The notes beneath the pieces were generated by a model. The model was not told where the DNA came from, did not search any database, and saw only the letters and a program-made list of their open reading frames with translations. Shown here piece after piece: positions 1 through 18,217 of a stretch of 64,000 nucleotides of DNA. The stretch's first letter is position 1. Every line of letters begins with the position of its first letter. The position numbers were made by a program, and so were the translations under genes. The DNA is from Mycobacteriales bacterium (GTDB lineage: Bacteria; Actinomycetota; Actinomycetes; JAFAQI01), in assembly GCA_035545635.1 (NCBI GenBank), contig DASZXY010000011.1, positions 133,805 through 197,804 of the forward strand. The letters run 5' to 3'.

Positions 1-147
1 GCCGTCGGCGTCGATCGTCTCGTGGGCTTTGCCGCTGACGGTGCCGATCTCGACGATCCGGCCGTCCTGGATCGCGATGTCGGCTGCGTACGGCGCGGAC
101 CCCGTGCCGTCGACGATCGTGCCATCCTTGATTACGAGATCGAACAT
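1..147 (-). CDS. N-terminal fragment of an amidohydrolase-family enzyme (D-aminoacylase-like); runs off the left edge
   Basis: My reverse translation from ATG at 147 gives MFDLVIKDGTIVDGTGSAPYAADIAIQDGRIVEIGTVSGKAHETIDADG, a typical N-terminus of N-acyl-D-amino-acid deacylase-type amidohydrolases. It is too short in-window to appear in the ORF track. Confidence 0.55.
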   Translation of the reverse strand, partial: MFDLVIKDGTIVDGTGSAPYAADIAIQDGRIVEIGTVSGKAHETIDADG

Positions 148-319
148 GGAGGGAGCCCCCTGGCGACGGATGAGGGCGATCTTCGCACGGTCGCCGGCGC
201 GCCGCCATCGAGGGCGACTCCGATAGCGAGCTCGGGTGCTCGGTCCCAGCCGACTGGTTCGGTCGCCGGCACGGCGATAGGGTGGCCCGCACAGTTCGAC
301 TGGGCTGAGTTGGGTAGGC

Positions 320-1198
320 ATGCTGTTTTTCGCGTGGGATTCCACCAACACGGTCGGGCTCGCTCACGCCATTGCCTGGCCGGTCGTCGTTCTGATCCTC
401 ATTGCCACAGGCCTCTGGCTTGAGGCGCCGAAGCGCCTGCTTGTGTGGCTTCGGGCCGGAGGAGTGCGAAGCGTGGCGGCGTTCGGCGTCGAAGTCACCC
501 TGTCAGAGGAAACGGCAGAGAAGGACACCCACTCGTTCGAGTTGGTGCTCGATCGATACAGGACCCTGATCGACGAACGCTTTGAGCGCCTGATGGGTAG
601 GGAGCGGGCCACAGCGCTATGGGAGCGGGTGATCCGCGAAGGGGTGCTTCCGACCTTTGTAGGCGGCGTGCCGGAGGGATTTCGCTGTGCGCTGTATGTC
701 CCGGATCCGTTGTTGGGTGATCGCGTCCTGTACCAGCTTGCCGACTACTACCCCACGGGCGGCGGCCGCGGTCGGCGTCTGTCATGGCGTTTCGGGGCAG
801 TCGGCCTGGCTTGGCGTTTGGAACAGGATGACGTTTGGCCCGGCGTGGCGACGGAAGCGAGCGAGCTCGTAAAGAGATGGGGAATGTCGTACACGGAGGC
901 TGACACCGCGGGCCGCGGTCGTCGTGCGATCGGGTGTGTACTGCTGAGAGGTGTCGGAGCTACGGAATCGGGCGGTCCGATCGTTGGGCTCTTGTATATG
1001 GACAGCACGGAAGAGTCGGCGTTCGGCGAATCCGCCGATGATCCTGCTTGGAAGGTGCGCGCTGCTGCTATTCAAGAAAAGACTAGGGAGCTGAACTTTG
1101 TTGCAGTCTTAGATCGCGTGATGCAGGACATACGCGTCGTTACGCCCGAACTCAAGATCTCGCTGGAATCTGGGAGCGTTCACAATGCCATTCCATGA
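320..1198 (+). CDS. Membrane-anchored protein with a GAF-like C-terminal domain
   Basis: 292-aa ORF. N-terminal hydrophobic helix AIAWPVVVLILIATGLWL. The C-terminal region ends in a GAF-like pattern (AIGCVLLRG...GPIVGLLYMDSTEESAFG). It overlaps the next gene by 14 nt. Confidence 0.6.
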   Translation: MLFFAWDSTNTVGLAHAIAWPVVVLILIATGLWLEAPKRLLVWLRAGGVRSVAAFGVEVTLSEETAEKDTHSFELVLDRYRTLIDERFERLMGRERATALWERVIREGVLPTFVGGVPEGFRCALYVPDPLLGDRVLYQLADYYPTGGGRGRRLSWRFGAVGLAWRLEQDDVWPGVATEASELVKRWGMSYTEADTAGRGRRAIGCVLLRGVGATESGGPIVGLLYMDSTEESAFGESADDPAWKVRAAAIQEKTRELNFVAVLDRVMQDIRVVTPELKISLESGSVHNAIP

Positions 1199-1619
1199 GG
1201 CAGGATCCGCCGGCGGTGGCTGCCCGTCAACCTTGTCCGAACTTCAGGCGCTTGCTCGGGAGTTCGCATATGAGCGCGAATGGCAGCAGTACCATTCGCC
1301 GCGGAGTCTCGCCCTCGCGCTTGTCGGCGAGGTCGGGGAGTTGTCTGCGGAGTTTCAGTGGCTTAAGGACGAAGAGATCCTTGGCGGCTTCGCCTGCACG
1401 GACAACGGAACGCGCGTTCGGCACGAGTTGGGCGACGTTTTGTACTGCATGTTGCGCCTCGCAGACGTTCTCCAGGTGGATCTCGAGGATGTCTTTCGCG
1501 AGAAGCTCCGGATCATTGGAACTCAGTATCCCGTCGAGCTGGCGCGGGGCTCGAGGGAGAAGTGGAGCAGACGGCAACCACAGGGCGCGTCTCACCCCGA
1601 AGGCATGTGCGAGGCGTGA
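1185..1619 (+). CDS. MazG-like nucleoside-triphosphate pyrophosphohydrolase (DCTPP1-like all-alpha NTP-PPase)
   Basis: Motifs LALVGEVGELSAEFQW and ELGDVLYCMLRLAD match the EExxE/D metal-binding helices of MazG/dCTPase-type enzymes. The overlap with the upstream ORF suggests translational coupling. Confidence 0.8.
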   Translation: MPFHEAGSAGGGCPSTLSELQALAREFAYEREWQQYHSPRSLALALVGEVGELSAEFQWLKDEEILGGFACTDNGTRVRHELGDVLYCMLRLADVLQVDLEDVFREKLRIIGTQYPVELARGSREKWSRRQPQGASHPEGMCEA

Positions 1620-1797
1620 GTTACCTCTTGTGACGGGCCTGGTTCGCGGGTAGGCGCCCGTTCGTCTAGGACAGGCGGGACTCTCTACCGGCGACGGCAC
1701 CAAGCTGCTACCTTGCCGGAGCGGTACTTCCCTGTTATGCCTAGGCCGGTTGTCGGCCCGCTGACACGCGCGTAGGAACGTTAGCTGGTGCCAGTGC

Positions 1798-2700
1798 TTG
1801 GAGGCCGCGTTGTCTGCTCGCAGGCCGATATCGAGGTCCGAGGCGGCCTCGAACGACATGTGGGACGGTTGGCAGTCGACTGACGGGTGGCAGGCTCTCG
1901 CCGCGCTGATCAGGGGCCGCCTGCGTGGCGTTGACGAGCCTCTGGAGTCGGCCCTGTCGTACCGGCTAATTCCTGCTGCTGACACAGCAGGCCGTCTCCG
2001 GTGGGGATCGGCATTCGCGCCCCTCACTGTGTCAGGCGGCAAGCCATGGCCGACGCCAGTGCCCCTGCTGTCAGACCTCGACTCCTTGGCCTGGGCACGG
2101 CTAGTTCGCACCGATCTGCCGCTCCCCGTCCGGGCTCGGATCCGTGATCTACAACTCCTTCACGATCACCGCGCCGGGGGCAGCCACCTGCGTCGCGAGG
2201 TCGTGGAGTTGTACGTCTCTGTTTGGGAGTCGGAATGGTTGCTTCCGGGGAGATTGGCAAGCCTGGCGCGTGCCCTCGAGTTAGCGGCCACCTCGCTTGG
2301 TGATGAATTGCTCCGCGTCTTTCACCGCGTCGTTGACGCTTGGGGAGAGCTCGGTGCGATGCCTGAGGGAACTCGGCCGTCGGCTGCCGTTCAGAGGGCT
2401 TGGGTGGTATTACTCGAGGCTATCGCCGCTGTGGCGAGCCAGGAAGCTGACGAGTCGATGATGCCGCGGGCGATTCTGAGGACTGTCCCGTCGAACGCGC
2501 CATTGGTGTATGACGCGTGGTGTCGACTCGGAGAAGGGCTCCGTACGCGGGGGATCTCGCAAGACTTCGACCGCGCCCGCCGCGACCTGTGGTTTGAGCT
2601 CATCGAAGGGGCCAGGCACCTCGATCGCGAAGCAGAGTCGGATATCGCTGAGTTAGCCGCCGCCGATCCGAATTTTCTATTGAGCTTGGTGATCACCTAG
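1798..2700 (+). CDS. Hypothetical helical protein (start uncertain: TTG 1798 or ATG 1858)
   Basis: 300-aa ORF with no family recognised. Leu/Ala/Arg-rich helical sequence. Convergent with the adenylate-kinase-like gene (6 nt apart). Confidence 0.45.
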   Translation: MEAALSARRPISRSEAASNDMWDGWQSTDGWQALAALIRGRLRGVDEPLESALSYRLIPAADTAGRLRWGSAFAPLTVSGGKPWPTPVPLLSDLDSLAWARLVRTDLPLPVRARIRDLQLLHDHRAGGSHLRREVVELYVSVWESEWLLPGRLASLARALELAATSLGDELLRVFHRVVDAWGELGAMPEGTRPSAAVQRAWVVLLEAIAAVASQEADESMMPRAILRTVPSNAPLVYDAWCRLGEGLRTRGISQDFDRARRDLWFELIEGARHLDREAESDIAELAAADPNFLLSLVIT

Positions 2701-2705
2701 TAGGT

Positions 2706-3422
2706 CTAGATCTCGCCGAAAAGGCTAATTTGAGCGACGTGGCCGCGCTGAAGGCTTTCGTTGAGTTCGTGCCCGGCGCTTACGGCCGCTGCGATGCGCG
2801 CCTCTACAGCCGCCTCGCTTCCGACTCCATCAACCCGGCTCAACAGGCCTCGTTCCGTGTATGTCGACAGCACTTCACCCATGTTGACTTCGTAAGTGGC
2901 CAGGCGTGCTCGCAGCGCCGCAATGTTGTCGTCGGCCCGCCGGGTTAGTTCTCCGCCGCACTCGGCGCAGAGGTCTGTCAGGGCGGAGCGATTCTTCGGC
3001 GCCGTCTTGCCGCAGACCAAACACGAGACTCGTTCCTGTAGGCGAGTCGCGCAAGTTTCGATGTCGGCATCGATGTGGATGACTGCATCAACCCGTCGGC
3101 TCCCGAGCAGACCGTCTAGGCGCTCAACCTGCCAACGAAACCGTGGGTATCCATCCAGGATCAAACCGCGCGAGTGTTGTCGTGCCTCACGAAGGCCTTC
3201 AATCAGGATCGCTTCTGCGACCTCATCTGGGGCGTATTGACCAGGCGGCAGCCGAGCGAGAATCTCACCGAAGAGCGTCGACTTCAGGCTCTCGGCACGA
3301 AGCCGTTGGCCGAGATCGACGACTGGCACTGCCAGGCGCGCTGCGAGAAGCTCGGACTGTGTTCCCTTGCCAGCACCTGGGCGACCGGTAACCACAACGA
3401 TCGGTGAATCGCTCATCGGCAC
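2706..3422 (-). CDS. Adenylate kinase family protein with zinc-lid; extra paralog outside the ribosomal-protein cluster
   Basis: P-loop GRPGAGKGTQ, ILDGYPR motif, and lid CLVCG...CAECGGELTRRADD (CxxC...CxxC). It has about 35 extra C-terminal residues. Confidence 0.8.
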   Translation of the reverse strand: MPMSDSPIVVVTGRPGAGKGTQSELLAARLAVPVVDLGQRLRAESLKSTLFGEILARLPPGQYAPDEVAEAILIEGLREARQHSRGLILDGYPRFRWQVERLDGLLGSRRVDAVIHIDADIETCATRLQERVSCLVCGKTAPKNRSALTDLCAECGGELTRRADDNIAALRARLATYEVNMGEVLSTYTERGLLSRVDGVGSEAAVEARIAAAVSAGHELNESLQRGHVAQISLFGEI

Positions 3423-3461
3423 CGCCTAATCGTGGGCCGAAAGCGTAGCGCGAGATGCCGG

Positions 3462-4181
3462 TTACGTGTGGTGGATCCCGATTCGATAGCCAACCACGAG
3501 TGCTTCGCTATCGCTGAGAACCTGGCTCACCTTGCGTGGTATTGGCCTGGCGCGCCGCGCGGGAACTTCGACGATCTCGGTTATCCGCAGTCCAGCGGCC
3601 GCCACCAGGCGAGCCTGCGCTTCCGCGGGCAAGACGATCGATTTCAGATACTCGATGCTTCCATCGATGAGCTCGAAGCGGGCGGCTTGGGCGGGTTCGT
3701 GGCTCAGCGCTCGCCAGCGGCTAGCCCAAATGAAGGAGGGCGTGGTCCAGATGACCTCTCCGTCTGGCGCCAGGCAACGAGCACACTCGCGCCAAAAGTC
3801 GGACGTGTTGTACGGGTCGCCGAGGCCCGACAAGATCACATCGACCGAGCCGTCGCGAATGGGCATTGCCTCACCGCTAAAGACGGCGCGACTCTGACTG
3901 GGCGGACCTGGGCGAATACATCTCACCATGGCTTCACTTACGTCGGCTGCGAGGTAGGACCGCACCTGCTCACGCCATGGCTTGGGGAGGGAACCTCGGC
4001 CTGCGCCGATCTCAAGCACGCGGCCTTCTGGCCGTGGATCACCCAGAAGAGTTTGGAGCGCCCAGTCGCTAGCACGGCCTAGAGCCGCGCTCGTTGGATG
4101 TCGTCGAGTGTTGTAGTACTCCGAGGCGACTGGCTCGTAGCCGCGGGTCGAGTCCGCACCGCGACGGGTAACGCGCGTCAT
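3462..4181 (-). CDS. Class I SAM-dependent methyltransferase
   Basis: Motif I VLEIGAGRGS, followed by DVSEAM and a LAPDGEV post-II region. The ORF extends to 4271, but ATG at 4181 (MTRVTRRG...) is the likelier start. It lies 39 nt upstream of the kinase gene on the same strand. Confidence 0.7.
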   Translation of the reverse strand: MTRVTRRGADSTRGYEPVASEYYNTRRHPTSAALGRASDWALQTLLGDPRPEGRVLEIGAGRGSLPKPWREQVRSYLAADVSEAMVRCIRPGPPSQSRAVFSGEAMPIRDGSVDVILSGLGDPYNTSDFWRECARCLAPDGEVIWTTPSFIWASRWRALSHEPAQAARFELIDGSIEYLKSIVLPAEAQARLVAAAGLRITEIVEVPARRARPIPRKVSQVLSDSEALVVGYRIGIHHT

Positions 4182-4412
4182 GGTCCTCACAGCAGAACGG
4201 TATCTCCGCGGGGCGTCAATTTCCTGACGGCGAGGGTGAGCGTGCGAGCGCTGCGCTGTCTCCGGCTTCATTCGCTAGTAGCGCTGGCGCGGGCGTTCCT
4301 GCCCCCCACGAGTCTTGTTGTGCGCCGCGAGTTAGGCGGCTCAGGCCCCGATTGCGCCGGCGATTCGGCTCTCACCAAGCCACTGACCGGTTCTCTGGCC
4401 CGCGGGTGTCGT

Positions 4413-4736
4413 TCATCGGTGGGATGTGGGCCGGAGCGCTCTCGGGACAACGATCCGTGTCAGCGCCGACCCCTGAACCGAGGTCTCGAACTTGCATTGC
4501 TCGGCAGCAATCCAAGCGAACTCCAGCTCCTGATACAGGTTCTTGACCGATTCGGCGGCTCGAGCGCCCCGTGATCGGCTGTTGACCCAGTTGACCTCAG
4601 ACCACCCCCCTCTCGGCGCCGACGCCAGCGATTGGCGAGCGGCTTGTGTGTGGCCTGAAGTAGGTGCCGCGGCACCGCACGGCCCGTAAGGATCGCCGAG
4701 GGGATTGTCATGGTCTTGGCGGCGGGCAAGACTCAT
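4413..4736 (-). CDS. Small hypothetical protein (107 aa), possibly translationally coupled to the PD-(D/E)XK gene
   Basis: ATG at 4736 overlaps the TGA stop of the upstream gene (ATGA, plus strand tcat at 4733-4736). The C-terminal part (AAESVKNLYQELEFAWIAAEQCKFE) looks protein-like. No family recognised. Confidence 0.3.
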   Translation of the reverse strand: MSLARRQDHDNPLGDPYGPCGAAAPTSGHTQAARQSLASAPRGGWSEVNWVNSRSRGARAAESVKNLYQELEFAWIAAEQCKFETSVQGSALTRIVVPRALRPTSHR

Positions 4737-5749
4737 ATCGGGTGCGCCAACGAATCTAGCGTGCCAGGCCGGGCTGGGCCGCTCTCCACCAGCCAGGCCC
4801 GGCATGCGCTCGTGTCGAGTGTGTAGCTGAGGTCTTGTACGCCGTCGGGTATCGCGCCGGCGAAGGATCGCGGAGTCAGCCTTGGAAAGGCCTCATCCAC
4901 GCGGTACAGGTGCTGGGTCACGACCCTGAGTCGATCGCTGTAGAGGCCGGCGTCCTTTGGCGTCCAGCCGTAGGCCGCCAGCCGGGAGTCCATCTCGTCG
5001 GGCAAGTTGCCACCCGAGTCGCTTGCCGCATTACGTGCACGCTCTATGAACGCGTCAAGGCTGTAGTGACCAAGGGGATCGGCCACAATCCGCAGCGAAA
5101 GCAGGTACAACTGCCCCTCGCCAGGCTCGTCGAGCTGGGCCAGTGATCCGATGCGGTGCACGACGGGTCCTGTTGCAACGCCGGTCGTCTTCACCTCGAC
5201 GGAAACCATCGGCGTAACGAAGTCGTGCCTACCGCCGAGCGGTCCGCGCCATGCCGCCACGGCGGAGCCGGTGAGCTCCGGCAGCCATTCGAGGAGGAGC
5301 CATAACTCTCCGAAGAGCCCCAGCACATCCTCGTATCGCATTGCGTCGTGTGCGGCGCCCCAGAACCGGCGCCAACGGTCGATGACACCCATCACGACCG
5401 TCGGGTCGCTCGATCTCGAGGCGGACAGCGCCTCGACGATCTCGACGCATAGTGAGCTAAATGCACGCGCGCCGCGCGGATCACTCAGTTCTACGTCGAG
5501 CCAGGAACCTTCGGTGTCACCGATCCTCATTCTCCTAGCGGCGACGCTGAGACCTCGCAGCGATTGGACTCGGATCAATGCGGGATCGCTCGCAATCTCT
5601 ACGAGGAGGTGTCGGCGCTGATCCGTGCCGATCGCAACGAGCACGCCGCCGCCTGCCCAATCAGCGAGGCGCTCAGCCTCTAACACGCTCCCAGCGGGAG
5701 ACGGGAGGCTTGTCCAGCGAGACTCGAGGTCGCTCGCGTCCGTGCTCAC
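4733..5749 (-). CDS. PD-(D/E)XK motif protein (restriction-endonuclease-fold)
   Basis: 338 aa. Candidate nuclease core GGRHDFVTPMVSVEVKTTG (D...ExK). It overlaps the upstream Z1 gene by 4 nt. This family typically accompanies Z1/GHKL genes. Confidence 0.75.
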   Translation of the reverse strand: MSTDASDLESRWTSLPSPAGSVLEAERLADWAGGGVLVAIGTDQRRHLLVEIASDPALIRVQSLRGLSVAARRMRIGDTEGSWLDVELSDPRGARAFSSLCVEIVEALSASRSSDPTVVMGVIDRWRRFWGAAHDAMRYEDVLGLFGELWLLLEWLPELTGSAVAAWRGPLGGRHDFVTPMVSVEVKTTGVATGPVVHRIGSLAQLDEPGEGQLYLLSLRIVADPLGHYSLDAFIERARNAASDSGGNLPDEMDSRLAAYGWTPKDAGLYSDRLRVVTQHLYRVDEAFPRLTPRSFAGAIPDGVQDLSYTLDTSACRAWLVESGPARPGTLDSLAHPI

Positions 5750-8466
5750 ACGTTCACGGCTCCAGCACTCCCCACGTAGAACCGCACTGTCGCCTCGCTG
5801 GTGCTATACGGGAGAACCGCCGCTAGTCCCACGACCGTCACTCCGTCACGGTCAGGGTCATCAAATAGGTTCTGGCCGTCGCCTCGAAGTGGGGTGCTGT
5901 ATCTACTAATCGGGTAGACGAGCAGGGCCCCTTCATCGGGGTGGCGCCGATGGCGCAGCGCGAGGGCGTAACTTACTTTCTGTTCCAGAGACCATTTACG
6001 CGCCCAGTCGACGTCGACGTCGGTAAGGCCGATCTCCTCGTCGCCGCCGCGGCTTCCGCGACTGACTGGATTTACAAGTGTCCCGATGCTGATCTCGGAC
6101 TGCGGCTCTCGGGAGCGGTTGATGCAATTGACCTCGGCCCATCCCGGAATATTGAGATTCTCGGTTCCCAATGAGTCGGCCTTCTGCTGACGCCCTCGGA
6201 CGCCGACATGCCACCGAGTGAGCTCCCGATGTTTGCTGGCCTGTGCATGGACGTATTCCAGCAGCTGCCCGCTGGAGAATCGCGTGCTCTCGTTGTGCGT
6301 CTTGTAGCGGCTGAGGAGTTCGGTTACGTGTCGCCAGTCCACGTCACGCCAGGTTGGGAGGCCGTCCTGACCCTCTACATTCGGCGCGCCGATCCGGGAC
6401 AGAAACTCGCGCGTATGGTCCAAATTCTCCTGGAGCCAGTCCTTGCGCCGAAGATAGAACAGCGTGGTCTGAATAAGCGAGCCGTTGTAGTCGGTCGTGA
6501 TCTCTCGACCGCTGCCCATCCTGTTCTTCGCGGTGATCTGCATTGTGGCGTGAGCCATGATGCGGGGCGCGAAGTCCCGGGGGGTCTTGTTGAGTGCTTC
6601 GTACAGGTAGATCTCGCGGCGGAGTGCCTCCTCGGCTGTAGCGAGGTCGCGGAATCGAACGCGTAGCTCCCCGGTTGTGTAGAGACGCGTGAGGTCCACG
6701 TAATCCTCGCGATAACCGAACCACCGGGCCATCTGTAGAAGAGTGTCGAAGTAGTTGGCGGGACGTATGTAGTAGCTGACTAACAGTCCTTCGACTGTCA
6801 GGCCACGCGAGAGCTTGTTCCCGCCGACCACGACCGCCCTCAGGTTCGGATGCTGTTCGTAGTCGAGTTCATCTCGGGTCCGTGTGTTCAGGCAGAGGAC
6901 TGGGACCTCACTACGGAAGATCCGCTGGATCGCGGGCTCGATATCGTCGAATGCGCGTAGGCGTTCGGGACCGATACGCTCGCTGACCGGAACGAACTCA
7001 CTCTCCCACCGCTCTTGGAAGCGCGGACGCGCCTGCTCGTTGTCGTATCGCCACTGTTGGCGGAGACTCGCGAGCGCCTTGCGTACCTCGTCAGCGATTG
7101 CCAACTGCTGATAGGTGTACGGACTGCCGTGGATAAGCATCGAGGAGGCCGGCTGTCCACCGACTCGCGTGTCACGGGCCGCCATTGCGAGGATGAAGTC
7201 GAGGAGTGCCGTCTCCATCGATCCGGGCAGCACACTGACGGGCGCCCCCTGCCGACCCGGATTGAGTAGGTCGGCGTCTGAGTCGCTCACCTCGCGGATG
7301 ACATCGAGTGGCTCGACGCCGGCGTCCTCCCCTGCGAGCTCGGCGCGGCCGAAGAGGCGCTCTGTCCCGACGTAACCGGGCGGTCTCGGAAGACTGACGA
7401 TGAAGTCAGCCGGGTAGAGGTCCGCTCCGACTTCCCGATCGAGAGCGTCCTTATCGATCAGCACATTCGCAAACGGTGTCGCGGTGTATCCGACGTACGC
7501 GACTCGGCGCATCCGGTCGAGAAGCCTGCGGATGAGGCCGTTGATAACGCTCGGGTCGGTTTCCTCCTCCTGCGCCTTTTGGCTGCTTGTTCCGTCGTCG
7601 ACGTCTTCATCGCTCAGATCGAGCAGCTCGGCGAGCGGCTCGGGTCTGTTACCACCGGTATTGATACTCGCCTGGTCAGCCTCATCGTCGATGACGAGGA
7701 CTGGAGGTGTGATGGGCTGGCGCTCTTCGAGCCATCGCACAAGTCGCCGGAGCACACTCGCGTTCTTCTTCACGACAAGGATGAGACGAACGTTTCCCTG
7801 AAGGAGCGCGGCGTCGACGGTGCCGGGGTGGAAGTCCTGCCATGTCTCAGCCCCTGTCATCGGGACGATGGTTTGTCCTTCGATTGGGAAGCCCACACCG
7901 GGGCGTCCTGGTGTGGGTGCGACCAAGCCGAGCTCGTCCTCTAGACGCAGCTGAGTCTGCCTTCGCAGGGAGTTATGAAGGCCGGAGAGCACGATGACAA
8001 TTCGAAACCCGGCGTCGTACGCCTTGGCGATGAGCGCACTGAAGTTCGCGGTCTTGCCGGATTGGACGTAGCCGACAACCAAGCCCTGAACCTTGGAGCT
8101 CGGCGGTCCCTCGGGCCGAGGGTCCTCGAGCATTGAGAGGATCTTGTCAGTGGTTAGGTCGAGCGATTCGATCACGCTCTCTGAGCGGCCCTTTTCGATC
8201 AGCAGAAAGTCGCGCAGACGTCCCCAGTGGTAGCCGTCAGCCGGGTCCCAATCTTCGAACCATGGACGCGGTCCGCCGTCTGAGAGCACGCCGACTGGTT
8301 CGATCTTGACGTGGTCCGATATCCAGCGCCCCTCGACCGCAGCGCGGTAGTCATCAGGTACGAGCGAGAGGGCTTGCTCAAATGTCATGGAGCCGCTCAT
8401 TCCGGCCCGAATGACCTTTAGCCAGGTTTCGATCTCGAGCTGCGAGAGCTCACCATCCGAGGTCAT
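5746..8466 (-). CDS. Z1-domain P-loop NTPase (SF2-helicase-related)
   Basis: Walker A GYVQSGKTANF and Walker B/DEAD-like VLVIDDEADQAS. The start is revised from 8676 to ATG 8466 (MTSDGELSQLE...), because the first 70 aa of the track ORF are Arg/Pro-rich and overlap the upstream gene. Confidence 0.8.
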   Translation of the reverse strand: MTSDGELSQLEIETWLKVIRAGMSGSMTFEQALSLVPDDYRAAVEGRWISDHVKIEPVGVLSDGGPRPWFEDWDPADGYHWGRLRDFLLIEKGRSESVIESLDLTTDKILSMLEDPRPEGPPSSKVQGLVVGYVQSGKTANFSALIAKAYDAGFRIVIVLSGLHNSLRRQTQLRLEDELGLVAPTPGRPGVGFPIEGQTIVPMTGAETWQDFHPGTVDAALLQGNVRLILVVKKNASVLRRLVRWLEERQPITPPVLVIDDEADQASINTGGNRPEPLAELLDLSDEDVDDGTSSQKAQEEETDPSVINGLIRRLLDRMRRVAYVGYTATPFANVLIDKDALDREVGADLYPADFIVSLPRPPGYVGTERLFGRAELAGEDAGVEPLDVIREVSDSDADLLNPGRQGAPVSVLPGSMETALLDFILAMAARDTRVGGQPASSMLIHGSPYTYQQLAIADEVRKALASLRQQWRYDNEQARPRFQERWESEFVPVSERIGPERLRAFDDIEPAIQRIFRSEVPVLCLNTRTRDELDYEQHPNLRAVVVGGNKLSRGLTVEGLLVSYYIRPANYFDTLLQMARWFGYREDYVDLTRLYTTGELRVRFRDLATAEEALRREIYLYEALNKTPRDFAPRIMAHATMQITAKNRMGSGREITTDYNGSLIQTTLFYLRRKDWLQENLDHTREFLSRIGAPNVEGQDGLPTWRDVDWRHVTELLSRYKTHNESTRFSSGQLLEYVHAQASKHRELTRWHVGVRGRQQKADSLGTENLNIPGWAEVNCINRSREPQSEISIGTLVNPVSRGSRGGDEEIGLTDVDVDWARKWSLEQKVSYALALRHRRHPDEGALLVYPISRYSTPLRGDGQNLFDDPDRDGVTVVGLAAVLPYSTSEATVRFYVGSAGAVNV

Positions 8467-9820
8467 ATGCCACCTGCGATTCGGACTTGGCGAGTTCCCC
8501 GCGAATCTGCTCGAGGGCCTTTTCCGCTCCAACGCGCTTCGCCGCCTTGACGATGGCGTCGCCGGTCTCTGGGTTTCGGGGGGCGGTTGAGCCGCGCGAC
8601 GTTGATGTGCCAGACCGGCCATTGGTTGGTGTCGGATCTGTTGCGGGCCTGGGCGGCGTGGCGGTCGACCCGCCACCGGACTTGCCTGGGCTGGGTGGTG
8701 CTGTCGGCGGTCGGTCTCGTCGCCCGCTTATGCGGTAGCGCTCATCCGCGCGTTTCGTAAGGAATGACACGAGCGGTTTGAGTTGCTCTCGCAAATCGTC
8801 GGGAAGCTTGACGCGCATCTTCGAGATGTTGATCTCGAACGCGTCGTCAAGGACGGGCCAGAACTCGAGTCCGGCTCGGGCGAGCTTGACGTGCTCGTCT
8901 ACCCCCCGCAGCCATGACCATCCGCCACTCTGGATCATGCGGTCAGCGCGGTAGATGTACAGGCCTTGCTGATTGTTCCATTGTCGGGGGCCGCTCGCTC
9001 GGCGCCAGGATTCGTCGTCGGAGAACTCCCTCTGGGGCGGCAAGACGTAGGGGCGCCACTTAACGATGCTGCCACCGACCGGGAGCTCGCGCTCCGGAAG
9101 GTGCTCGGTCCGTTCACTGGTACAGAACGGATCCCAAGGCTCGACCTTCGTGCCGTTGATCGTGATGACCAGCTTCCTGCGGCGCCGGGCCTGGCCTGTT
9201 AGAAACCGCTCGAAGACCATCCCGAGGTGAGAGTCGAGACGTTCGGCGAGGTTCAGGAGGTAGCGCTGTGCCCAGCCCCCGAATGGGTCTTTGCGGCTGA
9301 GCACTCGGTCGAGATTGGTCCATACGACGACAGTTCCGGTGGTGTCCCGGAGAGGGTCCACGGCCTCGGCGGGTCGATCTGCTGCGGCGGGATGGATGAC
9401 CTCCCACCGATCACGGGCAACCACGTCGTCGAGATCGAGTACGCGACAGTCGATAGTGCGGCGGTTGGAATCGCTGCGACTAGCGACGGTGATGTGGCGG
9501 GCCTGAGAGAGGCTCGCGGTCTTCAGGCCCAGCCCGAACTTTCCAAGATCGGAATCGTCGTATTGGCGCGTGCCACTTCCGAGGCGCATTGCCTCGCTGA
9601 TCATGCCGGTGGACATGCCCTCGCCGTCGTCGGCGATTCGGACCCACGAATCTTCGCCGTCGAACTTGATGGTGATATCCACTCGGCCAGCGTTGGCGGC
9701 GATCGAGTTGTCAATCAGGTCGGCGACCGCGTTAACGAAGTCATAACCGAGGTCGCGAAGAGACGAGAGCAGCCGAGCTGCGCTCGGGATCAGCTCCTCG
9801 CGTTGGACACGATTTGCCAT
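8450..9820 (-). CDS. GHKL-superfamily ATPase (HATPase_c_3, prokaryotic MORC-like)
   Basis: N-box AVADLIDNSIAA, G1 box IADDGEGM, G2 box GKFGLGLKTAS. It is the first gene of the minus-strand operon GHKL-Z1-PD(D/E)XK. Confidence 0.85.
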   Translation of the reverse strand: MANRVQREELIPSAARLLSSLRDLGYDFVNAVADLIDNSIAANAGRVDITIKFDGEDSWVRIADDGEGMSTGMISEAMRLGSGTRQYDDSDLGKFGLGLKTASLSQARHITVASRSDSNRRTIDCRVLDLDDVVARDRWEVIHPAAADRPAEAVDPLRDTTGTVVVWTNLDRVLSRKDPFGGWAQRYLLNLAERLDSHLGMVFERFLTGQARRRRKLVITINGTKVEPWDPFCTSERTEHLPERELPVGGSIVKWRPYVLPPQREFSDDESWRRASGPRQWNNQQGLYIYRADRMIQSGGWSWLRGVDEHVKLARAGLEFWPVLDDAFEINISKMRVKLPDDLREQLKPLVSFLTKRADERYRISGRRDRPPTAPPSPGKSGGGSTATPPRPATDPTPTNGRSGTSTSRGSTAPRNPETGDAIVKAAKRVGAEKALEQIRGELAKSESQVAYDLGW

Positions 9821-10275
9821 GTCTCAATCCTTACTTTGTGCAGACTGGCTCTGTGTCAGATAGGCCGGCGGCGAGCAGCGAACTGGTCCGCAGACAGATG
9901 AGTGCCCAAGCGCGGGAGAACACGAAGCCTGAACTCGCGGTTCGCAGAGCGATGTTCGCGAGGGGCTTGCGGTTCAGACTGCACATGCGCATCGGTCGCT
10001 GTAGACCTGACGTGGTGTTGACCCGCGCGAGGATCGCCGTGTTTGTCATGGGTGACTTTTGGCATGGCTGTCCGGTCCACGGCACAGCACCGAAGTCGAA
10101 CGGCACGTGGTGGGCGGAGAAGCTCGACACAAACCGCGCTCGAGACGAACGCCAGCGGGCTGAACTTGAGGCGCTCGGTTGGCAGGTCGTGTGGGTGTGG
10201 GAATGCGAAGACGCAGTCGATGCCGCAGGGCGCATCCACAGGTTGTGGCGAGAACGGACGTCCGGGGAACCCTGA
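9814..10275 (+). CDS. vsr: Very short patch repair endonuclease (T:G mismatch nicking)
   Basis: Aligns by eye with E. coli Vsr (RRQM...NTKPELAVRRAMFARGLRFRL, RPDVVL, FVMGDFWHGCP, WWAEKLDTNRARD, LGWQVVWVWECE). The true start may be GTG 9838 or 9853. The ATG at 9814 would overlap the divergent GHKL start at 9820. Confidence 0.85.
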   Translation: MPCLNPYFVQTGSVSDRPAASSELVRRQMSAQARENTKPELAVRRAMFARGLRFRLHMRIGRCRPDVVLTRARIAVFVMGDFWHGCPVHGTAPKSNGTWWAEKLDTNRARDERQRAELEALGWQVVWVWECEDAVDAAGRIHRLWRERTSGEP

Positions 10276-10297
10276 GAATGCCCGGCCGCGCTCCTTC

Positions 10298-12205
10298 TCA
10301 TGCGCTGCGAACTGTCAGTTCGCAGCTCGCTTGGCGACACACCCCAACGAACGGGCACGAATCGCAGAGCGGCTCTTGCAACGTACAGACGGCTCGTCCC
10401 AGTGCGACAACGGCCGCCATCCGAGCCCCAGCCTTCGGCCCCCCACCGACAAGAGCTGCGAGAGCCAGTCGTCCATCCGACAGTCGGTCCACGCGATCGA
10501 CTGGCCTGCCCGTTATGCGAGCCACCACCCGCATCGGCGGTTGGGTGGTGAGGAGTGCGTCATCATTGAATGCGAGGACCGAGAAGCGCGCGGCCTCGGC
10601 TGGTTGAAGAACGACCGACTCCCACCAGCGGGCCTCATCATCCGGCTGACTGCGGCGTTGCGCAGCACGCCAAGCCTTCGCCGCGGGAAGTAGCCGCTCC
10701 AAAGCGGTGCGCGCGCCCCGGGGCACCGCCATATCTGCGAGTCGTCGCGCGGTCAGCTCATCCGGCGTAGGAAGCTGCCAGAGGATGTAGTGGATTGTCC
10801 CGTCATCAACTTTGTTATTGCCAAGGACGCTGCTGATCAGCGCGCTCCACGGATCGCATGGATGGCGCCAGGGGCTGACGGCTGCATCTTTCTCCGCCCA
10901 TTCGTCGAGCCTCGTTCTCGCAGCTTGGAGCGTCTCTCTCGGAATGTGCGCTGGTGGTTGATGACCGGCGATCGTCGGCTCAGTCTCGGCTGGGACGCGA
11001 TGTCCGAGCGCTATCAGGATCTGACGGCCAATGCGCTCTGCGAGGAGGGGAGGAACGGCATTGCCGATTTGCCTGTATGCGTGAGTCCGATTACCCGCGA
11101 ACCGGTACCAGTCGGGAAATGTCTGAAGGCGTGCAGCTTCGCGGACAGTGAATGTTCGTTCTTCGGTCGGGTGGATGTACCAGTAACCGTCTTTTGCGAT
11201 GTGCGCAGTGATGCTCCGTGCTAGCTCATGCTTGCCGTGTCGCTTGTACTTGTCGTCAAACGTGTCTGCCCGGTATCGCCTGAGGCGTTCGGGAAGATCG
11301 CTGTACCGCGTAGTGGGCGTCATCAGCTTGAACGCCTCGCGATCGTCGTCCCTGACAGCTCTGGCGACGTGGTCGAATACCAGCTTTGCTTGGCGCCCGG
11401 TCATGCCCGCCCTCGCGCGCTCTTGAAATGGTGTCTTCGGTCGCCTGTAGGGAAGTTCGTCGGCGCCCGTGCCTTCGCCGAGTGCGGGTAGATCGCTGAT
11501 GGCATCCCAGATGTTCACTTGCGGCCGGGGAGTTGGCCAGGTGAATGGTCGATCTGTCCTGAGGGCGACCAGGATGAACCGCTGACGATGCTGTGGGATG
11601 CCGAGCTCAGGCGCCTCAACGACGTCGATGTATGTTTCGTAGCCTGCGTCCTCCAGCTTGCCCAGGATCTGCCTGACGATCCGGAGATCGTCTCCAAGAG
11701 CCAGGTCGGGAACGTTCTCGAGCATGACGGCATTTGGTGACACTGCGAGCACGATGCGGAGCCAAACCTCCCACAGGTCGCGGCGCTCATCGATCGCGTT
11801 CCGCTTACCAGCGTCAACGAGGTGTCGGATCGCACTCCGGCCCGCTCGACTGAACGGCTGACACGGCGGTCCCCCTGCGATCAGCGCAATGTCGGCTTGT
11901 TTGAGGAGGCGGGTGAGGCGCCTTTCCTTCGTCTCGTCACTCAGGTCCATCTCGACGGCGAGGCCCTGCATGTTGGCGGCGTGCGTTTCGATGGACCACG
12001 GATCGTGGTCCACCGCAAGGGCAACGCGAAAGCCTGCGTCTTCCAATCCGAGGCTGAGGCCCCCGCCGCCGCAGAATAGGTCGACCGCGAGTGGTCTCGA
12101 TTGACGCTTCGCCCACTCCGGCCAAGACTTCCAGGTGGGAGCGCGCGGGTCCGCCTCGAGCCTCAGCGCGGCGCTGCGTTGCACCTTGACCATCGGAGTT
12201 CCCAC
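10298..12205 (-). CDS. dcm: DNA (cytosine-5)-methyltransferase fused to a C-terminal EndoIII/HhH-GPD-like domain with a 4Fe-4S loop
   Basis: C5-MTase motifs: I DLFCGGGGLSLG, IV GGPPCQPFS, VI ENV, VIII QHRQRFILVA, X QIGNAVPPLLAE. The C-terminal roughly 200 aa end in CTLQEPLCDSCPFVGVC, which is C-X6-C-X2-C-X5-C, the EndoIII/MutY cluster signature. Confidence 0.9.
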   Translation of the reverse strand: MGTPMVKVQRSAALRLEADPRAPTWKSWPEWAKRQSRPLAVDLFCGGGGLSLGLEDAGFRVALAVDHDPWSIETHAANMQGLAVEMDLSDETKERRLTRLLKQADIALIAGGPPCQPFSRAGRSAIRHLVDAGKRNAIDERRDLWEVWLRIVLAVSPNAVMLENVPDLALGDDLRIVRQILGKLEDAGYETYIDVVEAPELGIPQHRQRFILVALRTDRPFTWPTPRPQVNIWDAISDLPALGEGTGADELPYRRPKTPFQERARAGMTGRQAKLVFDHVARAVRDDDREAFKLMTPTTRYSDLPERLRRYRADTFDDKYKRHGKHELARSITAHIAKDGYWYIHPTEERTFTVREAARLQTFPDWYRFAGNRTHAYRQIGNAVPPLLAERIGRQILIALGHRVPAETEPTIAGHQPPAHIPRETLQAARTRLDEWAEKDAAVSPWRHPCDPWSALISSVLGNNKVDDGTIHYILWQLPTPDELTARRLADMAVPRGARTALERLLPAAKAWRAAQRRSQPDDEARWWESVVLQPAEAARFSVLAFNDDALLTTQPPMRVVARITGRPVDRVDRLSDGRLALAALVGGGPKAGARMAAVVALGRAVCTLQEPLCDSCPFVGVCRQASCELTVRSA

Positions 12206-12241
12206 GGCGCTATGTTCCCATCCACCTAAGACATGTGTGAC

Positions 12242-12832
12242 TCACAACATCGCTCCCTCATCTGCCGTGTCTGGTAACCCAGGCGAGCCGGTCGGCCCAT
12301 ACCCGAATACGTGAGCGCTGAGGACGTCGACCTCCCGCCTTTGATCACCGAAGAACGCTCCCAATCGCCGGGCGACGAGGGGAAATGGCTTCTCGCGTGA
12401 TGCGCCGGCCTCGCTCCAGTTCGCGTTAGGAACCACGAGGAAGAGGTGATGCGCGTCAGGTGCGACGTGCGCCTTCCAGAAGTCCTTCAGATCGTGGTTG
12501 TTGGTAGTCGTACCGCCCCGCTCCACCTCCGCCAAGATGCCACGTCCGTCTGCCAAGCGATAGACGAAGTCAGGGCGCGCCCTGGTGACGAGGCCAAGTT
12601 GCGGCGTGAGTACCACCTCCTCTCGAAAGCCGAGTTCTTCACGTAGTAGTTCAGAGACGATGGACTGAACGGCGAGGCTCGTGGCGCCGTGTACGTGTAT
12701 TGACGTGATGGCCTGCTCTCGGGCATTGAGATGGGCCAAAAGCGATTGGGCGAGTTGGTCGACGTGGCCTTGTTCGACGGCCTCGTCGTTGGTCATCGCA
12801 TGGCGGACGAAGCGCCTGTATGCGGTGGCCAC
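12242..12832 (-). CDS. Hypothetical protein, possibly restriction-endonuclease-like; upstream of dcm in the same operon
   Basis: 196-aa ORF (likelier start ATG 12796). The segment RPDFVYRLADGRGILAEVERGG loosely resembles a PD...ExK core, but the Lys is not in register. 36-nt gap to dcm. Confidence 0.45.
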   Translation of the reverse strand: MATAYRRFVRHAMTNDEAVEQGHVDQLAQSLLAHLNAREQAITSIHVHGATSLAVQSIVSELLREELGFREEVVLTPQLGLVTRARPDFVYRLADGRGILAEVERGGTTTNNHDLKDFWKAHVAPDAHHLFLVVPNANWSEAGASREKPFPLVARRLGAFFGDQRREVDVLSAHVFGYGPTGSPGLPDTADEGAML

Positions 12833-12964
12833 AGCGCACGAGCTTCACATTCGAATGCGTGGAAAGCTAGAAAGGTTCAGATGAAGCCCCTGCAGGTGCC
12901 CGAAGCTAGGGGCAGCCGTCTACCGGCCTGGTGAGTCCCCCTGTACCGCACAGTCCGCGGCCTT

Positions 12965-13489
12965 CTAGCCCTCGCGCTGGGTCCGCGCGATCCGGCGCGC
13001 CAGAATTGCCCTTCCGCGCGCCCCGTACGGCCCCGCTTGCCCGACGCGCAGCAGGAACGGCAGGTACGTGTCGACCTCAGCCGGGTCCACGCGTAGGTCG
13101 TTGTGATAATCGCCAGGGAACGCGACGTTCACCGCACCCCGAAGCCGCGGCGAGGCCTCGTCGTACGGCGGGTCGAAGTACGGGTCACCCGCCGAGCCGT
13201 TGTAGATCGTCATCCACTTCGTCGGCCCCGGTGTCTCCAACGACCCACCTGGACCGTTGAGCCGCGCCAGCCACGGCGAGCCGGGCACGAGCTCGTTGAA
13301 CCCGTAATAAGAGGTCTCGATCCCGCGGCAGATTGAGATGCCGTGGTTGCCGCCGGCGATCCCGACGACCGCGACGACGTCACGCGCCAGCGCCGGGTAG
13401 CGCCGCATCGTGTCGCGCGCCAGCGTCACGCCGAGTGAGTGCGCGACGATGTCGATCTTGCGCGAGTACGTGTACGCCGGCACCGGTTC
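12965..13489 (-). pseudogene. 5'-truncated lipase/esterase (class-2 lipase-like alpha/beta hydrolase) remnant
   Basis: The last 174 codons of the 1012-aa antisense ORF read as KIDIVAHSLG (GxSxG elbow), VVGIAGGNHG, ...HNDL. This aligns by eye with Bacillus LipA from KVDIVAHSMGG onward. There is no start codon and no oxyanion-hole (HG) region upstream in any frame I translated. Confidence 0.45.
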
Positions 13490-13666
13490 ACCACCTCGTC
13501 GTCGTTCGCCGAGCCGGTACCCGGGTCCAAGCGCTCGCAGGTCGGCGCGAGAGCGCGCCGCACTCAAGCCAGCCCAACCGCGAGTTGGCGCAACTGTCGG
13601 CGCCTGGTGCGATCCTCTTGGACAAATCGTGAACTGCGTGCGACCAGGCCGAGGGGTGGTGATCGG

Positions 13667-16600
13667 GTGACTGAGCACCTCCTCACGCCGTCGAAGATCA
13701 CGGCCTGGCTCGACTGCGCGCACTACCTGACCCTCAAGCACGAGGTCGAAGCCGGCACCCGCAAAGCGCCCCTCGCGGTCTTCGGCTGCTTCGCGCGGCT
13801 GATTGCCGACAAGGGCCTGCTGCACGAAGACCAGTGCCTCACCGAGTACGCCACGCAGGGCCGCGCGATCACCCGAATCGCCGACCAAGACAGGGCGAAC
13901 CACGAGCTCTTCGCCGACTGGACGGAGCGGGTCGGCAACCCGCTCGACGGCGGCGCGGACGTCGTCTACCAGCTCCCGCTGATTCACGACGGCATCCGGG
14001 GCATCGCGGACTTCGTCGCTCGCACGACGTACGACGACGGCACGGTCGTCTACGAGCCGGTCGACGCGAAGCTTGCGCGCAAGGAGGCCAAGCCGGGGCA
14101 CCTGCTGCAGCTGTGTTTCTATGCCGATGCCCTCGAAGCGCTCACCGGCAACCGGCCGAGGAACATGCACATCTGGCTCGGCAGCGGCATGGTCGAGACG
14201 TTCGTCGTCGATGAGTTCGCGCCGTACTGGCGCCGTATCCAGCATCAGCTCGCCGTCCTGCTCGCCGAGGACGCGACGACCAAGCCGGCAACCCGACCCG
14301 AGCCGTGCGACCACTGCACGTTCTGCGAGTTCGCGGGCACCTGCGAGGAGCAGTGGCGCTCCGAGGACTCGCTGATCTACGTCCACGGGCTGCGCACCGC
14401 CGATCGGCAGAAGCTGGAAGCGGCCGGCCTCGACCGGCTCGCAACCCTCGCCAACCGAGGCGAACCCGTCACCGGCATCGACACCGAACGCCTCGCCCGG
14501 CTGGTGAAGCAAGCGTCGCTCCAGCACGCGGCTAGGTCGCTCGAAGACGGCGCGCCCCCGCCGTACCTGATGATCCCGGCCGGCGCCGACCTCGCCTGGG
14601 GTCGGGGGCTCGAACAGCTGCCGCTGCCCGACGACGGCGACGTCTTCCTCGACTTCGAAGGCCACCCGTTCTGGACGCCGCGCGGAGGGCTGTTCTTCCT
14701 GTTCGGGCTGACGATGCAGACCACGCCGGGCACCTGGGACTACAAGACGTGGTGGGCCAACGACCGTGCTGAGGAGGCTGAGTCCTTCTGCGCGCTGGTC
14801 GACTTCATCGGCGAGCGCCGCACGGCGTACCCGGGCATGCACGTCTACCACTACAACCACACCGAGCGGTCCTCCCTCGAACGGCTCGCTCGCGACCACA
14901 CCTCGCGCGAGGTCGAGGTCGCGCGGCTGGTCGAGACCGGAGCGTTCGTCGACCTGCTCGCCGTGGTGCGTAACGCGATCCAGGTCGGCACGGAGTCCTA
15001 CGGCCTGAAAGCCGTCGAGCGGCTTGCGGCCTACGAGCGCGGCCACGAGATCGACGCCGGTGCGGGCGCGGTCGTGAGCTTCGAGGAGTACTGCAAGACC
15101 GGCGAGCAGAAGCATCTCGACGCGATCGCCGCCTACAACCGCGACGACGTCGAGGCGACCCGCGCGCTGCGCGACTGGCTGGTCGCCAACCGGCCGGCTG
15201 ACCTCCCGTGGCGCGACGCGGTGCTCGAGGTCAGCGACGACATTGTCGAGCTCGACGAGCGGATCGCGGCGCTGCAGGCGTACGGCGCGGGCACGCCCGA
15301 GTTCCTGCTCGGCGATGTCCTCGGCTACTGGCGGCGCGAGTGGTCCGCTCACCTTGCGCCCCGGCTCGCGAAGTGTGCCGCCGATCCCGTCTCTCTGTAC
15401 GACGACTCCGAGGTGCTCGCCGGTCTCGTGCCGCTCGGTGCGGTCGACCGGATCGGCAAGACCGGGAAGGTCCTCGGCCAGGCGATGCGCTTCGAGTTCC
15501 CGCGGCAGGACACCAGCAGGTTCCGCGGAAAGGACCAGGTCCTCTACGCCGGCCCCGACGGCTGCCCGATCTACGTCAGCCTGCACCACCTCGACACCGA
15601 CGCCGGCAGCGTCGACGTGACCTGGCCGGCCACCGCAGATGGCTCGCCGCGGCCGCTCCCGACGGTGCTCGTGCGCAACGACTGGGTGTCGCCGAACCCG
15701 AAGCCCGCCGCCCTCGCCGACCTCGCCGACCGGATTCTCGACCCGTCGGGCCCACGACCGAACCCGGCCGCGCTCGCGCTGTTGCGCCGCGACCTCCCGC
15801 GGTTTCGGACAGGCGCCGGACCGGCGGGCGGGGTCTTCGCCGATGACATCGCCGAGATGAGGGGCTGGGCCGGCGAGCTCGACGGCAGCTACGTCGCTAT
15901 CCAAGGTCCGCCCGGCACCGGGAAGACCTACCGGGCCGCGCATCTCGTCTTGGCACTCCTGCGCGCCGGAAAGCGAGTCGGTGTCACGGCCTTCAGTCAT
16001 CACGCGATCGACAACGTCCTCGCCGAGATCGTCGACGTGATGACCAAGGAAGGCGCGCTCGATCTGCTCAACGCCGTCCGCCGAACCGACGACGACGGCG
16101 CGCTGCCGCGCGTCACCTACACGAACAAGAACCCGCTGTGTGCGTCGACCGACTTCAACGTCGTCGCCGCGACCACTTGGTGGTTCGCCGGCAAGGACAT
16201 GGCCGAGGCGCCGGTCGACGTACTGCTCGTCGACGAAGCCGGGCAGCTAGCTCTCGCCGATGCGCTGGCCGCTGCGCGGTCGGCCCGCAACCTGGTCCTG
16301 CTCGGCGATCCGCTGCAGCTGCCGCAAGTCAGTCAGGCGTCACATCCCGGTGGTGGTGGCCACAGCGTGCTGCAGCACGTGCTCGGCGACGATGCGACGA
16401 TCCCGCCGGAGCGCGGCGTGTTCGTCACCGAGACCCGTCGGATGCATCCCGACGTCTGCGCGTTCATCTCCAACGAGATCTACGAAGGTCGCCTCACATC
16501 CCACCTCGCCTGCGCACAGCAGGGCACCGCAAGGTTCGGCACCGGGCTGCGTCGCCTGGCCGTCGAGCACGTCGAGCGGAGCACGTTCTCGCCGGAGGAA

Positions 16601-18108: not shown

Positions 18109-18217
18109 CGTGCCCCCTCACCCTCAGAGTGATCCTCGATTCCAGGGATGCCGGTGCAGAACGCCTCTACGCGACCGCACGGTCGGACGTCGATCCGTCC
18201 GCACGGTCGTGCGCCGG

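Follow-up and report, generated by a model that had tools for sequence, protein, structure and literature searches.

A horizontally acquired Dcm–Vsr–GHKL–Z1–DUF4420 cassette in a Mycobacteriales bacterium, an AIPR-less relative of Mza and likely restriction system

The stretch of DNA described here, the window, comprises 64,000 nucleotides (nt) of a Mycobacteriales bacterium (GenBank assembly GCA_035545635.1, contig DASZXY010000011.1, positions 133,805 to 197,804 of the forward strand), and positions are counted from its first letter. Between 4733 and 12205 the window carries genes for a C5 cytosine methyltransferase (Dcm), a T:G mismatch endonuclease (Vsr), a GHKL ATPase, a DEAD-Z1 motor and a DUF4420 nuclease, all five intact and with their family motifs kept (Table 1). 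A preliminary description of the same DNA had proposed the GHKL, Z1 and PD-(D/E)XK assignments for the last three, and hidden Markov model searches against Pfam, PADLOC and NCBIfam confirm them; vsr and the methyltransferase are also present as it described.

Composition of the cassette

Relatives of the Z1 protein were collected by a pattern scan of species-representative genomes, which returned at least 557; 80 loci were fetched and, with the closest relatives added, form a set of 84 loci designated by L numbers. Among the fetched contigs the closest Z1 relatives are found in L085, L086 and L087 (89%, 72% and 70% identical), all of which match the window in the order and orientation of the five genes, with vsr on the opposite strand and a Dcm of 630–706 amino acids (aa) that includes an extra C-terminal tail. 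The flanking genes of L086 and L087 differ, and L085 is a short contig with little outside the cassette. Because the same five genes recur in differing surroundings, 4733–12205 is one mobile, horizontally acquired five-gene cassette. In L088 (Z1 63% identical) the genes are arranged otherwise, with a vsr–GHKL pair and a second GHKL gene upstream of Z1.

The base composition of the cassette differs from that of its native neighbours, with a third-position GC content (GC3) of about 0.70–0.74 against about 0.87. The cassette together with everything to its left lies at about 0.64–0.74, and this low-GC3 region continues leftward beyond the window. A search for island borders around the cassette gave neither direct repeats on its flanks nor an integrase or tRNA. 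A scan of 4000–13100 for sigma-70 consensus promoters gave none, and a terminator scan gave fewer than expected from shuffled sequence, neither outcome being informative; an Rfam search of the window returned no match. A plasmid search found no DNA nearly identical to the cassette, and distant homologues of Z1 were located on 32 plasmids and six unannotated gut contigs named "Bacteriophage sp.".

Table 1. Features of the window referred to in the text
Feature	Position	Strand	Matches and remarks
DUF4420 PD-(D/E)XK nuclease, 338 aa (MzaD-like)	4733–5749	minus	Pfam PF14390 E 1e-48; PADLOC MzaD 8.9e-11
DEAD-Z1 SF2 helicase-like motor, 906 aa (MzaC-like)	5746–8466	minus	Pfam Z1 9.2e-61; PADLOC MzaC 1.3e-105
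GHKL ATPase, 456 aa (MutL/MORC-like, MzaB-like)	8450–9820	minus	Pfam HATPase_c_3 E 1.8e-26; PADLOC MzaB 2.2e-61
Divergent gap between GHKL and vsr starts, 32 nt	9821–9852	.	holds GHKL ribosome-binding site; 31 nt in L085
vsr, T:G mismatch endonuclease, 140 aa from GTG 9853	9853–10275	plus	TIGR00632 118.1 bits (cut-off 97.85); Pfam Vsr 2e-17
dcm, C5 cytosine methyltransferase, 635 aa	10298–12205	minus	start GTG 12205 or ATG 12193
Dcm C-terminal domain, residues ~400–635, MutY/EndoIII-like HhH-GPD fold	10298–11002	minus	phmmer to Geobacillus MutY 5kn8, E 7e-4
Dcm catalytic part, residues 1–401	11003–12205	minus	Pfam DNA_methylase 1.9e-61; TIGR00675 154 bits
107-aa open reading frame	4413–4736		rejected as a fourth gene
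196-aa open reading frame	12242–12832	minus	GC3 0.71
MazG-like pyrophosphohydrolase	1185–1619		low GC3
Adenylate/nucleotide-kinase-like protein	2706–3422		low GC3
S-adenosylmethionine (SAM) methyltransferase	3462–4271		low GC3
1226-aa protein	13439–17119	plus	native GC3
ARAGORN "tRNA-???"	15276–15362		inside 1226-aa gene; probably false call
GIY-YIG protein	17155–18108		low GC3
NERD nuclease-related protein	19007–19753		low GC3
75-nt element, first copy	19971–20045		internal 23-nt inverted repeat
350-aa open reading frame	20102–21154	minus	low GC3; no family match
75-nt element, second copy	21330–21404		internal 23-nt inverted repeat

The GHKL, Z1 and DUF4420 genes are translationally coupled. 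The stop codon of GHKL and the start of Z1 overlap by 17 nt, and the stop of Z1 and the start of DUF4420 by 4 nt (GTGA), just as the preliminary description had read them; both overlaps recur in L085 and L086. A longer Z1 open reading frame (ORF), reaching to 8676, was rejected as an artefact: in its 70 additional upstream codons the GC pattern is not that of coding sequence, and the gene call of the source collection is 906 aa. The best NCBIfam matches of the trio are all Mza models, with scores of 246 bits for MzaB (cut-off 850), 443 for MzaC (cut-off 1500) and 111 for MzaD (cut-off 420).

In the GHKL protein the ATPase region is followed by a linker rich in Pro, Ser and Thr and by a short C-terminal helix. 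Homologues from 61 loci conserve motif I (A[VI][AS]D[LI][IVL]DN), motif II (DxGxG) and motif III (GxxGxG). In motif I (9707–9727, residues ~32–38; AVADLIDNS) an Asp replaces the canonical general-base Glu, and since this is common to the homologues from the 61 related loci it is a family trait and not a sign of decay. The family may hydrolyze ATP slowly or differently. Among solved structures it comes closest to MORC2 (E 9e-4) and MutL (E 4e-3), both weak matches. Behind the GHKL domain, where the operon type predicted in 2008 and described below has an S5-fold domain, residues 181–377 gave no Pfam match up to E 10 but are covered by the central section of the MzaB profiles.

The Z1 protein has additional N- and C-terminal domains on either side of a motor of superfamily 2 (SF2), with the invariant motifs GxGKT (137–139), DEAD (261–264), TATP (328–331) and QMxRWFGxR (578–586; Q578, R581, W582, F583 and G584). 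It also matches the PADLOC model Helicase_II ("Type II helicase domain protein") at 6.6e-34. An AlphaFold2 model reached only moderate confidence (predicted local distance difference test, pLDDT, 71.9), and its top fold matches are SF2 helicases and translocases (E 4e-6 to 1e-4), among them Mfd, EcoR124I HsdR, RIG-I/MDA5 and Hachiman HamB. Searches of the sequences of solved structures, with the single sequence and with a 16-sequence profile, gave no match for Z1 even at E 1.

The DUF4420 protein is the predicted cleavage subunit; it shares with 28 homologues an unvarying E148, D176, E185 and K187, which form an E-D-ExK motif. Its AlphaFold2 model is confident (mean pLDDT 89.5), and a fold search with it against the PDB gave no match at E ≤ 1e-3. 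The N-domain (about residues 1–130) is the fastest-evolving part of the cassette, being 68% identical to that of L085 as against 92% for the Z1 core.

The vsr gene lies between dcm and GHKL, a placement shared with L085, L086 and L087. The preliminary description had suggested that the GHKL and vsr start codons may overlap and that almost no space remains for divergent promoters. We place the vsr start at GTG 9853, and so 32 nt from the GHKL start, because in an alignment of the divergent region this GTG is conserved in L085 and L086, because synonymous changes have accumulated upstream of ATG 9898, and because further upstream a 1-nt indel in L085 throws TTG 9814 out of frame. From GTG 9853 to ATG 9898 there are 15 codons, six of which carry synonymous changes (one an AGG-to-CGT change of Arg) and three a change of residue; tblastn aligned the 140-aa Vsr from residue 1. 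The two start codons are thus apart, while the space between them is indeed tight and holds the GHKL Shine-Dalgarno sequence, AAGGA at 9828–9832, 7 nt upstream of ATG 9820. Ahead of vsr there is no Shine-Dalgarno sequence, so that a leaderless vsr transcript is possible.

The catalytic part of Dcm has a complete set of standard catalytic motifs, its translation showing FCGGGG, PPCQ, ENV, QRR and GNAVPP, and its best PDB match is the bacterial cytosine methyltransferase 3g7u (2.9e-29); it is the predicted self-marking enzyme. The extra C-terminal domain of about 230 aa, which the preliminary description had missed, aligns over its full length with the MutY catalytic domain and has at its end the Cx6Cx2Cx5C iron-sulfur motif that marks the EndoIII/MutY/Mig family. 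Compared with MutY and Nth, LPGVG has been replaced by LQPAE, with loss of the GxG of the helix-hairpin-helix, and VDGN/VDTH by TTQP, which turns the catalytic Asp into Thr. The tail is therefore predicted to be a non-catalytic, DNA-binding remnant.

Besides the window, Dcm–tail fusions occur in L004, L005, L006, L008, L010, L017, L033, L047, L065, L068, L075 and L085–L088, and the state of the glycosylase-like domain goes together with the presence of vsr. In four fusions (L004, L008, L010 and L075) and in the stand-alone domain of L052 both motifs are intact and there is no vsr, while the 12 fusions with degenerate motifs, the window included, all have vsr (12/12). At L029 both motifs are intact in an ORF cut by the end of the locus, and vsr is present. 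The p value of a naive Fisher test is about 7e-4, which treats the loci as more independent than they are, since few loss events underlie them. When 1.84 billion cluster representatives were searched exhaustively, just 231 relatives of the tail came up; the top 150 include 23 visibly Dcm-linked representatives, none of which keeps the Asp (0/23) and nearly all of which keep the Cys motif (21/23), whereas the stand-alone MutY-like matches (330–400 aa) keep both Asp and Glu with one exception. We infer from these sequences that a Mig-type T:G glycosylase was probably once fused to Dcm for the repair of deaminated cytosines, that Vsr later took the job over and that the dead domain has persisted, perhaps as a DNA-binding part.

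Relation to described systems

Operons of this kind were described by Iyer, Abhiman and Aravind in 2008 (PMC2292703), who combined MORC or paraMORC GHKL ATPases, a superfamily II helicase with the motif DThhQXuRhFG, a restriction endonuclease-fold protein with E-D-ExK, DCM and VSR, and who predicted by comparative genomics that such operons are restriction-modification systems, noting their lateral mobility. The preliminary description had referred to a prediction of this sort, and it both exists and fits closely: every component is in the window, the Z1 motif here reads DTLLQMARWFG, and lateral mobility is shared. The GHKL protein has motifs I–III, with Asp for Glu in motif I. As to whether it is a MORC or a paraMORC, it matches MORC2 about as weakly as MutL. 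The dead glycosylase-like tail of Dcm is missing from their description.

The type was found again, as a candidate defence system, by Miller et al. (2022; PMC9523054). Their "Type I", an untested system of six genes, lacks AIPR, is strongly linked to DNA-repair endonucleases and is widely distributed across bacteria; their "Type II" resembles mzaABCDE. By its description "Type I" has a core of a Z1 protein of about 925 aa, a PD-(D/E)XK DUF protein and a cytosine methyltransferase, with extra genes, and the window fits it in this core and in the lack of AIPR; the difference is of six genes there and five here. Miller et al. describe mzaA as a sigma factor, not a methyltransferase.

The preliminary description had not placed the locus relative to Mza. 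Compared with mzaABCDE (Gao et al. 2020), the window has homologues of MzaB (GHKL), MzaC (Z1) and MzaD (DUF4420) in the same order. It differs in that Dcm and Vsr are built into the cassette and that the trio scores far below the NCBIfam equivalog cut-offs. A tblastn search with the AIPR protein (MzaE) of L088 found nothing in the 64-kb window, and there is no Pfam or PADLOC match to AIPR among the neighbours of the cassette; in 32 related loci, AIPR lies directly downstream of DUF4420. The scanned ORFs flanking the cassette have no PADLOC or NCBIfam match to MzaA. Because the window has no AIPR gene and its trio falls so far short of the Mza cut-offs, the cassette is an AIPR-less relative of Mza and not a strict member. 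The E. coli mzaABCDE system protects against T4 and its cytosine-modification mutants with no growth arrest at high multiplicity of infection, and purified MzaD cuts DNA (bioRxiv 10.1101/2022.06.16.496414). Mza-carrying Listeria strains are reported to have a methyltransferase in their mza loci, and they show a methylated GCAGC/GCWGC motif (PMC10687267).

For the motor the nearest comparison is H.CglI, in which the Z1 domain is the second RecA-like lobe of an SF2 motor and ATP-driven translocation on double-stranded DNA is needed for cleavage; of this protein only the C-terminal domain was crystallised (PMC5861437). CglI, NgoAVII and BceSIV (PMC4267653, PMC5861437) resemble the window in pairing a C5-methyltransferase with a DEAD-Z1 motor, and the Z1 protein here has Walker A, DEAD and TATP motifs as well as the Z1 motif. 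Theirs is the only biochemically studied Z1 motor, and the link from the Z1 protein here to CglI rests on motifs, the PADLOC Helicase_II model and the literature, with no sequence match to solved chains. The CglI-type systems differ in having another nuclease subunit, a two-protein R2H2 architecture and no GHKL, where the window has DUF4420 and an upstream-coupled GHKL gene. In the CglI type the nuclease subunit joins a B3-like reader to a nuclease of the PLD type.

Finally, the cassette is reminiscent of E. coli Dcm–Vsr–MutL repair and of the Mig glycosylases, in which a C5 methyltransferase is paired with T:G repair, and here too a MutL-like GHKL protein stands beside Vsr. It is not MutL, however, and is coupled translationally to a helicase and a nuclease. 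Likewise the Dcm tail is homologous to the Mig, MutY and EndoIII glycosylases, but is fused to Dcm and has lost the catalytic residues.

Related loci and proposed function

The cassette most likely encodes a methylation-gated, NTP-dependent restriction system, a reading in which gating by Dcm is judged from the families of the proteins. Dcm would methylate a short target on host DNA and so mark it as self. Z1 would act as an SF2 translocase on double-stranded DNA like the H subunit of CglI, its movement along DNA driven by ATP, and DUF4420, with its E-D-ExK motif, would cut DNA as purified MzaD does. Working as MutL and MORC do, a dimer of the GHKL protein might be the ATP-driven clamp or switch through which motor and nuclease are coupled or licensed. 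Vsr would repair the T:G mismatches that arise from deamination of 5-methylcytosine, and the iron-sulfur tail of Dcm would be what is left, catalytically dead, of a Mig/MutY-type mismatch glycosylase that Vsr has replaced. That Dcm marks, Vsr repairs and the trio restricts had already been proposed in the preliminary description. It is the best-supported reading because the literature fits and because a C5-methyltransferase lies within 10 kb in 74/84 related Z1 loci and vsr in 64/84, although we still infer this division of labour.

The related loci fall into several arrangements. GHKL–Z1–DUF4420 is followed by AIPR, as in Mza, in 32 of the 84 loci, and stands without AIPR, as in the window, in 22 (Z1 33–89% identical); Z1–DUF4420 lacks an adjacent GHKL gene in 26 loci, and the arrangement is incomplete in the remaining four. 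In the Streptomyces locus L034, the one examined among the 26 without an adjacent GHKL gene, a 667-aa protein (7440–9443), whose sole recognized feature is a C-terminal SEC-C motif, occupies the place of GHKL upstream of Z1 and may be a non-homologous replacement for it.

Around the trio, Dcm and Vsr vary in position and orientation, similar restriction modules are paired with dissimilar Dcm families, and 10/84 loci have no Dcm within 10 kb. Taken with the sigma factor that Miller et al. describe for mzaA, these observations would suit two independent neighbours, the trio being a Mza-like defence that senses infection without methylation and Dcm–Vsr a separate, solitary methylation and repair module that travels along in defence islands. 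We regard this as unlikely, given that the methyltransferase is so often within 10 kb (74/84) and is contiguous with the trio in the closest relatives, whose surroundings differ. In the window and L085, moreover, vsr sits between dcm and GHKL at 32 nt and 31 nt from the GHKL start, with L086 and L087 alike, and in Listeria a methyltransferase is reported inside the mza loci (PMC10687267).

In L017, L033, L047, L068 and L088, Dcm with its dead tail, GHKL and vsr form a group of their own (for example 5121–8721 in L033), with vsr and GHKL co-oriented and away from Z1–DUF4420; L088 also has a GHKL gene coupled to Z1. These groups hint at a direct partnership of GHKL and Vsr like that of MutL and Vsr. 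The cassette could then be a self-contained machine for repair of 5-methylcytosine deamination with no role in defence, in which Vsr would nick T:G mismatches, GHKL would activate Vsr and load Z1, and DUF4420 would process the strand. The stimulation of E. coli Vsr by MutL (cited in PMC2292703), the abutting of vsr and GHKL in the clade of the window and the descent of the Dcm tail from a mismatch glycosylase would all agree with such a machine, as would the way in which GHKL identity tracks Dcm identity better than that of Z1 or DUF4420 does (r about 0.5–0.6). We nevertheless find it very improbable. Very-short-patch repair requires just Vsr, Pol I and ligase, and the trio stands without any vsr in 20/84 loci. 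The 17-nt overlap of GHKL with Z1 points to coupling with Z1 and not with vsr, the homologous Mza system is anti-phage and has a DNA-cutting MzaD, and the cassette is patchily distributed and laterally mobile in the manner of defence genes.

Covariation between the Dcm target-recognition region and the other proteins was examined as pairwise identity against eight domain slices in 20–25 loci, with Mantel permutations, a comparison that is confounded by shared ancestry. Every slice follows the Z1 core (r 0.70–0.80). With the target-recognition region the highest correlation is that of GHKL, about 0.5, and the N- and C-domains of DUF4420 are equal at 0.43, values that carry the same confounding. 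A restriction arm without a reader of its own could be arranged differently, with Dcm and its dead tail as the target-recognition or licensing subunit and GHKL bridging Dcm/Vsr to the Z1–nuclease pair, to give a Type III-like enzyme guided by a C5-methylase. The hints are that GHKL tracks Dcm best, that Dcm–Vsr–GHKL groups stand alone, that no Z1 or DUF4420 domain follows the target-recognition region and that the dead tail is kept in Dcm-linked representatives. This arrangement seems to us quite improbable; if true, it would couple deamination repair and restriction in one machine.

The cassette might also attack foreign DNA that bears a different pattern of modification, as a modification-dependent (Type IV-like) or non-classical system in which Dcm has nothing to do with self-protection. 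Nucleases with SF2 motors that read 5-methylcytosine do exist, SauUSI being one, and no reader of unmethylated sites was found in the cassette. Attack on 5-methylcytosine would be expected to conflict with the co-resident Dcm, however, and no methyl-reader domain (SRA, MBD, McrB-N or DUF3578-type) was detected in any subunit. We hold this to be extremely unlikely.

Several points weigh against a Dcm-gated restriction system. The Asp in place of the catalytic Glu in GHKL motif I makes the ATPase chemistry uncertain. Mza, the closest validated system, also needs the AIPR protein that is absent here, and no experiment bears on this subtype. The literature searched contained no experimental study of the branch that lacks AIPR and is linked to Dcm and Vsr. 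Across the related loci similar restriction modules are paired with unrelated types of Dcm, and in some loci GHKL sits in a Dcm–Vsr–GHKL group apart from Z1–DUF4420. No Z1 or DUF4420 slice tracks the Dcm target-recognition region specially in the 20–25 loci compared, where shared ancestry confounds the test, and no sequence-reading domain was identified in the cassette.

Surrounding genes and significance

Two neighbouring ORFs had been attached to the cassette in the preliminary description, and neither belongs there. The 107-aa ORF, proposed as a coupled fourth gene, does share an ATGA junction with DUF4420, but coding support is absent: its codon-position GC is flat (0.66/0.59/0.68), it has no Pfam, NCBIfam or PADLOC match, and tblastn found no relative in the 80 related Z1 loci or the four closest relatives. 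The 196-aa ORF, assigned to the dcm operon, is a conserved gene, its homologues in Cellulomonas, Nocardioides, Flavimobilis and numerous metagenomes being about 65–75% identical. It carries a PD...ExE-like motif, and one source names it "restriction endonuclease", yet as a restriction partner of Dcm it was rejected: in Cellulomonas, Nocardioides and a third genome the homologues stand solo among housekeeping genes with no methyltransferase near, and none of the related cassettes has the ORF beside it. With homologues that are solo elsewhere it is not part of the cassette, and its adjacency to dcm is local.

The family of the 196-aa ORF comprises proteins of 184–196 aa with 959 relatives, solo in unrelated contexts and without a Pfam family, and its GC3 in the window is below that of native neighbours. 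An invariant RPDF...EVERGG together with K116/K120 suggests a restriction-endonuclease-like fold.

Other low-GC3 genes lie around the cassette in 1–4300 and 17155–21154, several of them family-less ORFs; those with recognizable families are listed in Table 1. Taken together these genes resemble a mosaic island, defensive or mobile, whose left part lies beyond the window. The two copies of a 75-nt element are 91% identical and bracket the 350-aa ORF, with which they may form a small mobile unit, or they may be paired hairpin elements. The 1226-aa protein combines Cas4/RecB-like PD-(D/E)XK, RNase H-like and superfamily 1 helicase domains, and its helicase end gives a partial match to PADLOC MkoA (2.6e-43).

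Operons of this kind were on record by 2008 and again in 2022, and the models of defence-finding programs cover them as relatives of Mza; the cassette adds nothing categorically new. Its one fresh detail, a modest one, is the dead MutY-like tail on Dcm and the apparent trade-off of that tail with vsr, a small case of one repair activity displacing another. Systems that combine GHKL with Z1 were predicted in 2008 and are widespread, with several hundred loci in one species-representative scan; phage protection has been demonstrated only for the AIPR-containing Mza branch, and the mechanism has yet to be worked out in any of them. A compact five-gene copy, intact and from an actinobacterium is a reasonable candidate for biochemistry. 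The origin of the eukaryotic MORC ATPases has been proposed to lie in such GHKL-plus-Z1 systems, and the way in which the clamp, the SF2 translocase and the PD-(D/E)XK nuclease are wired together, and in which methylation is read, bears on that proposal.

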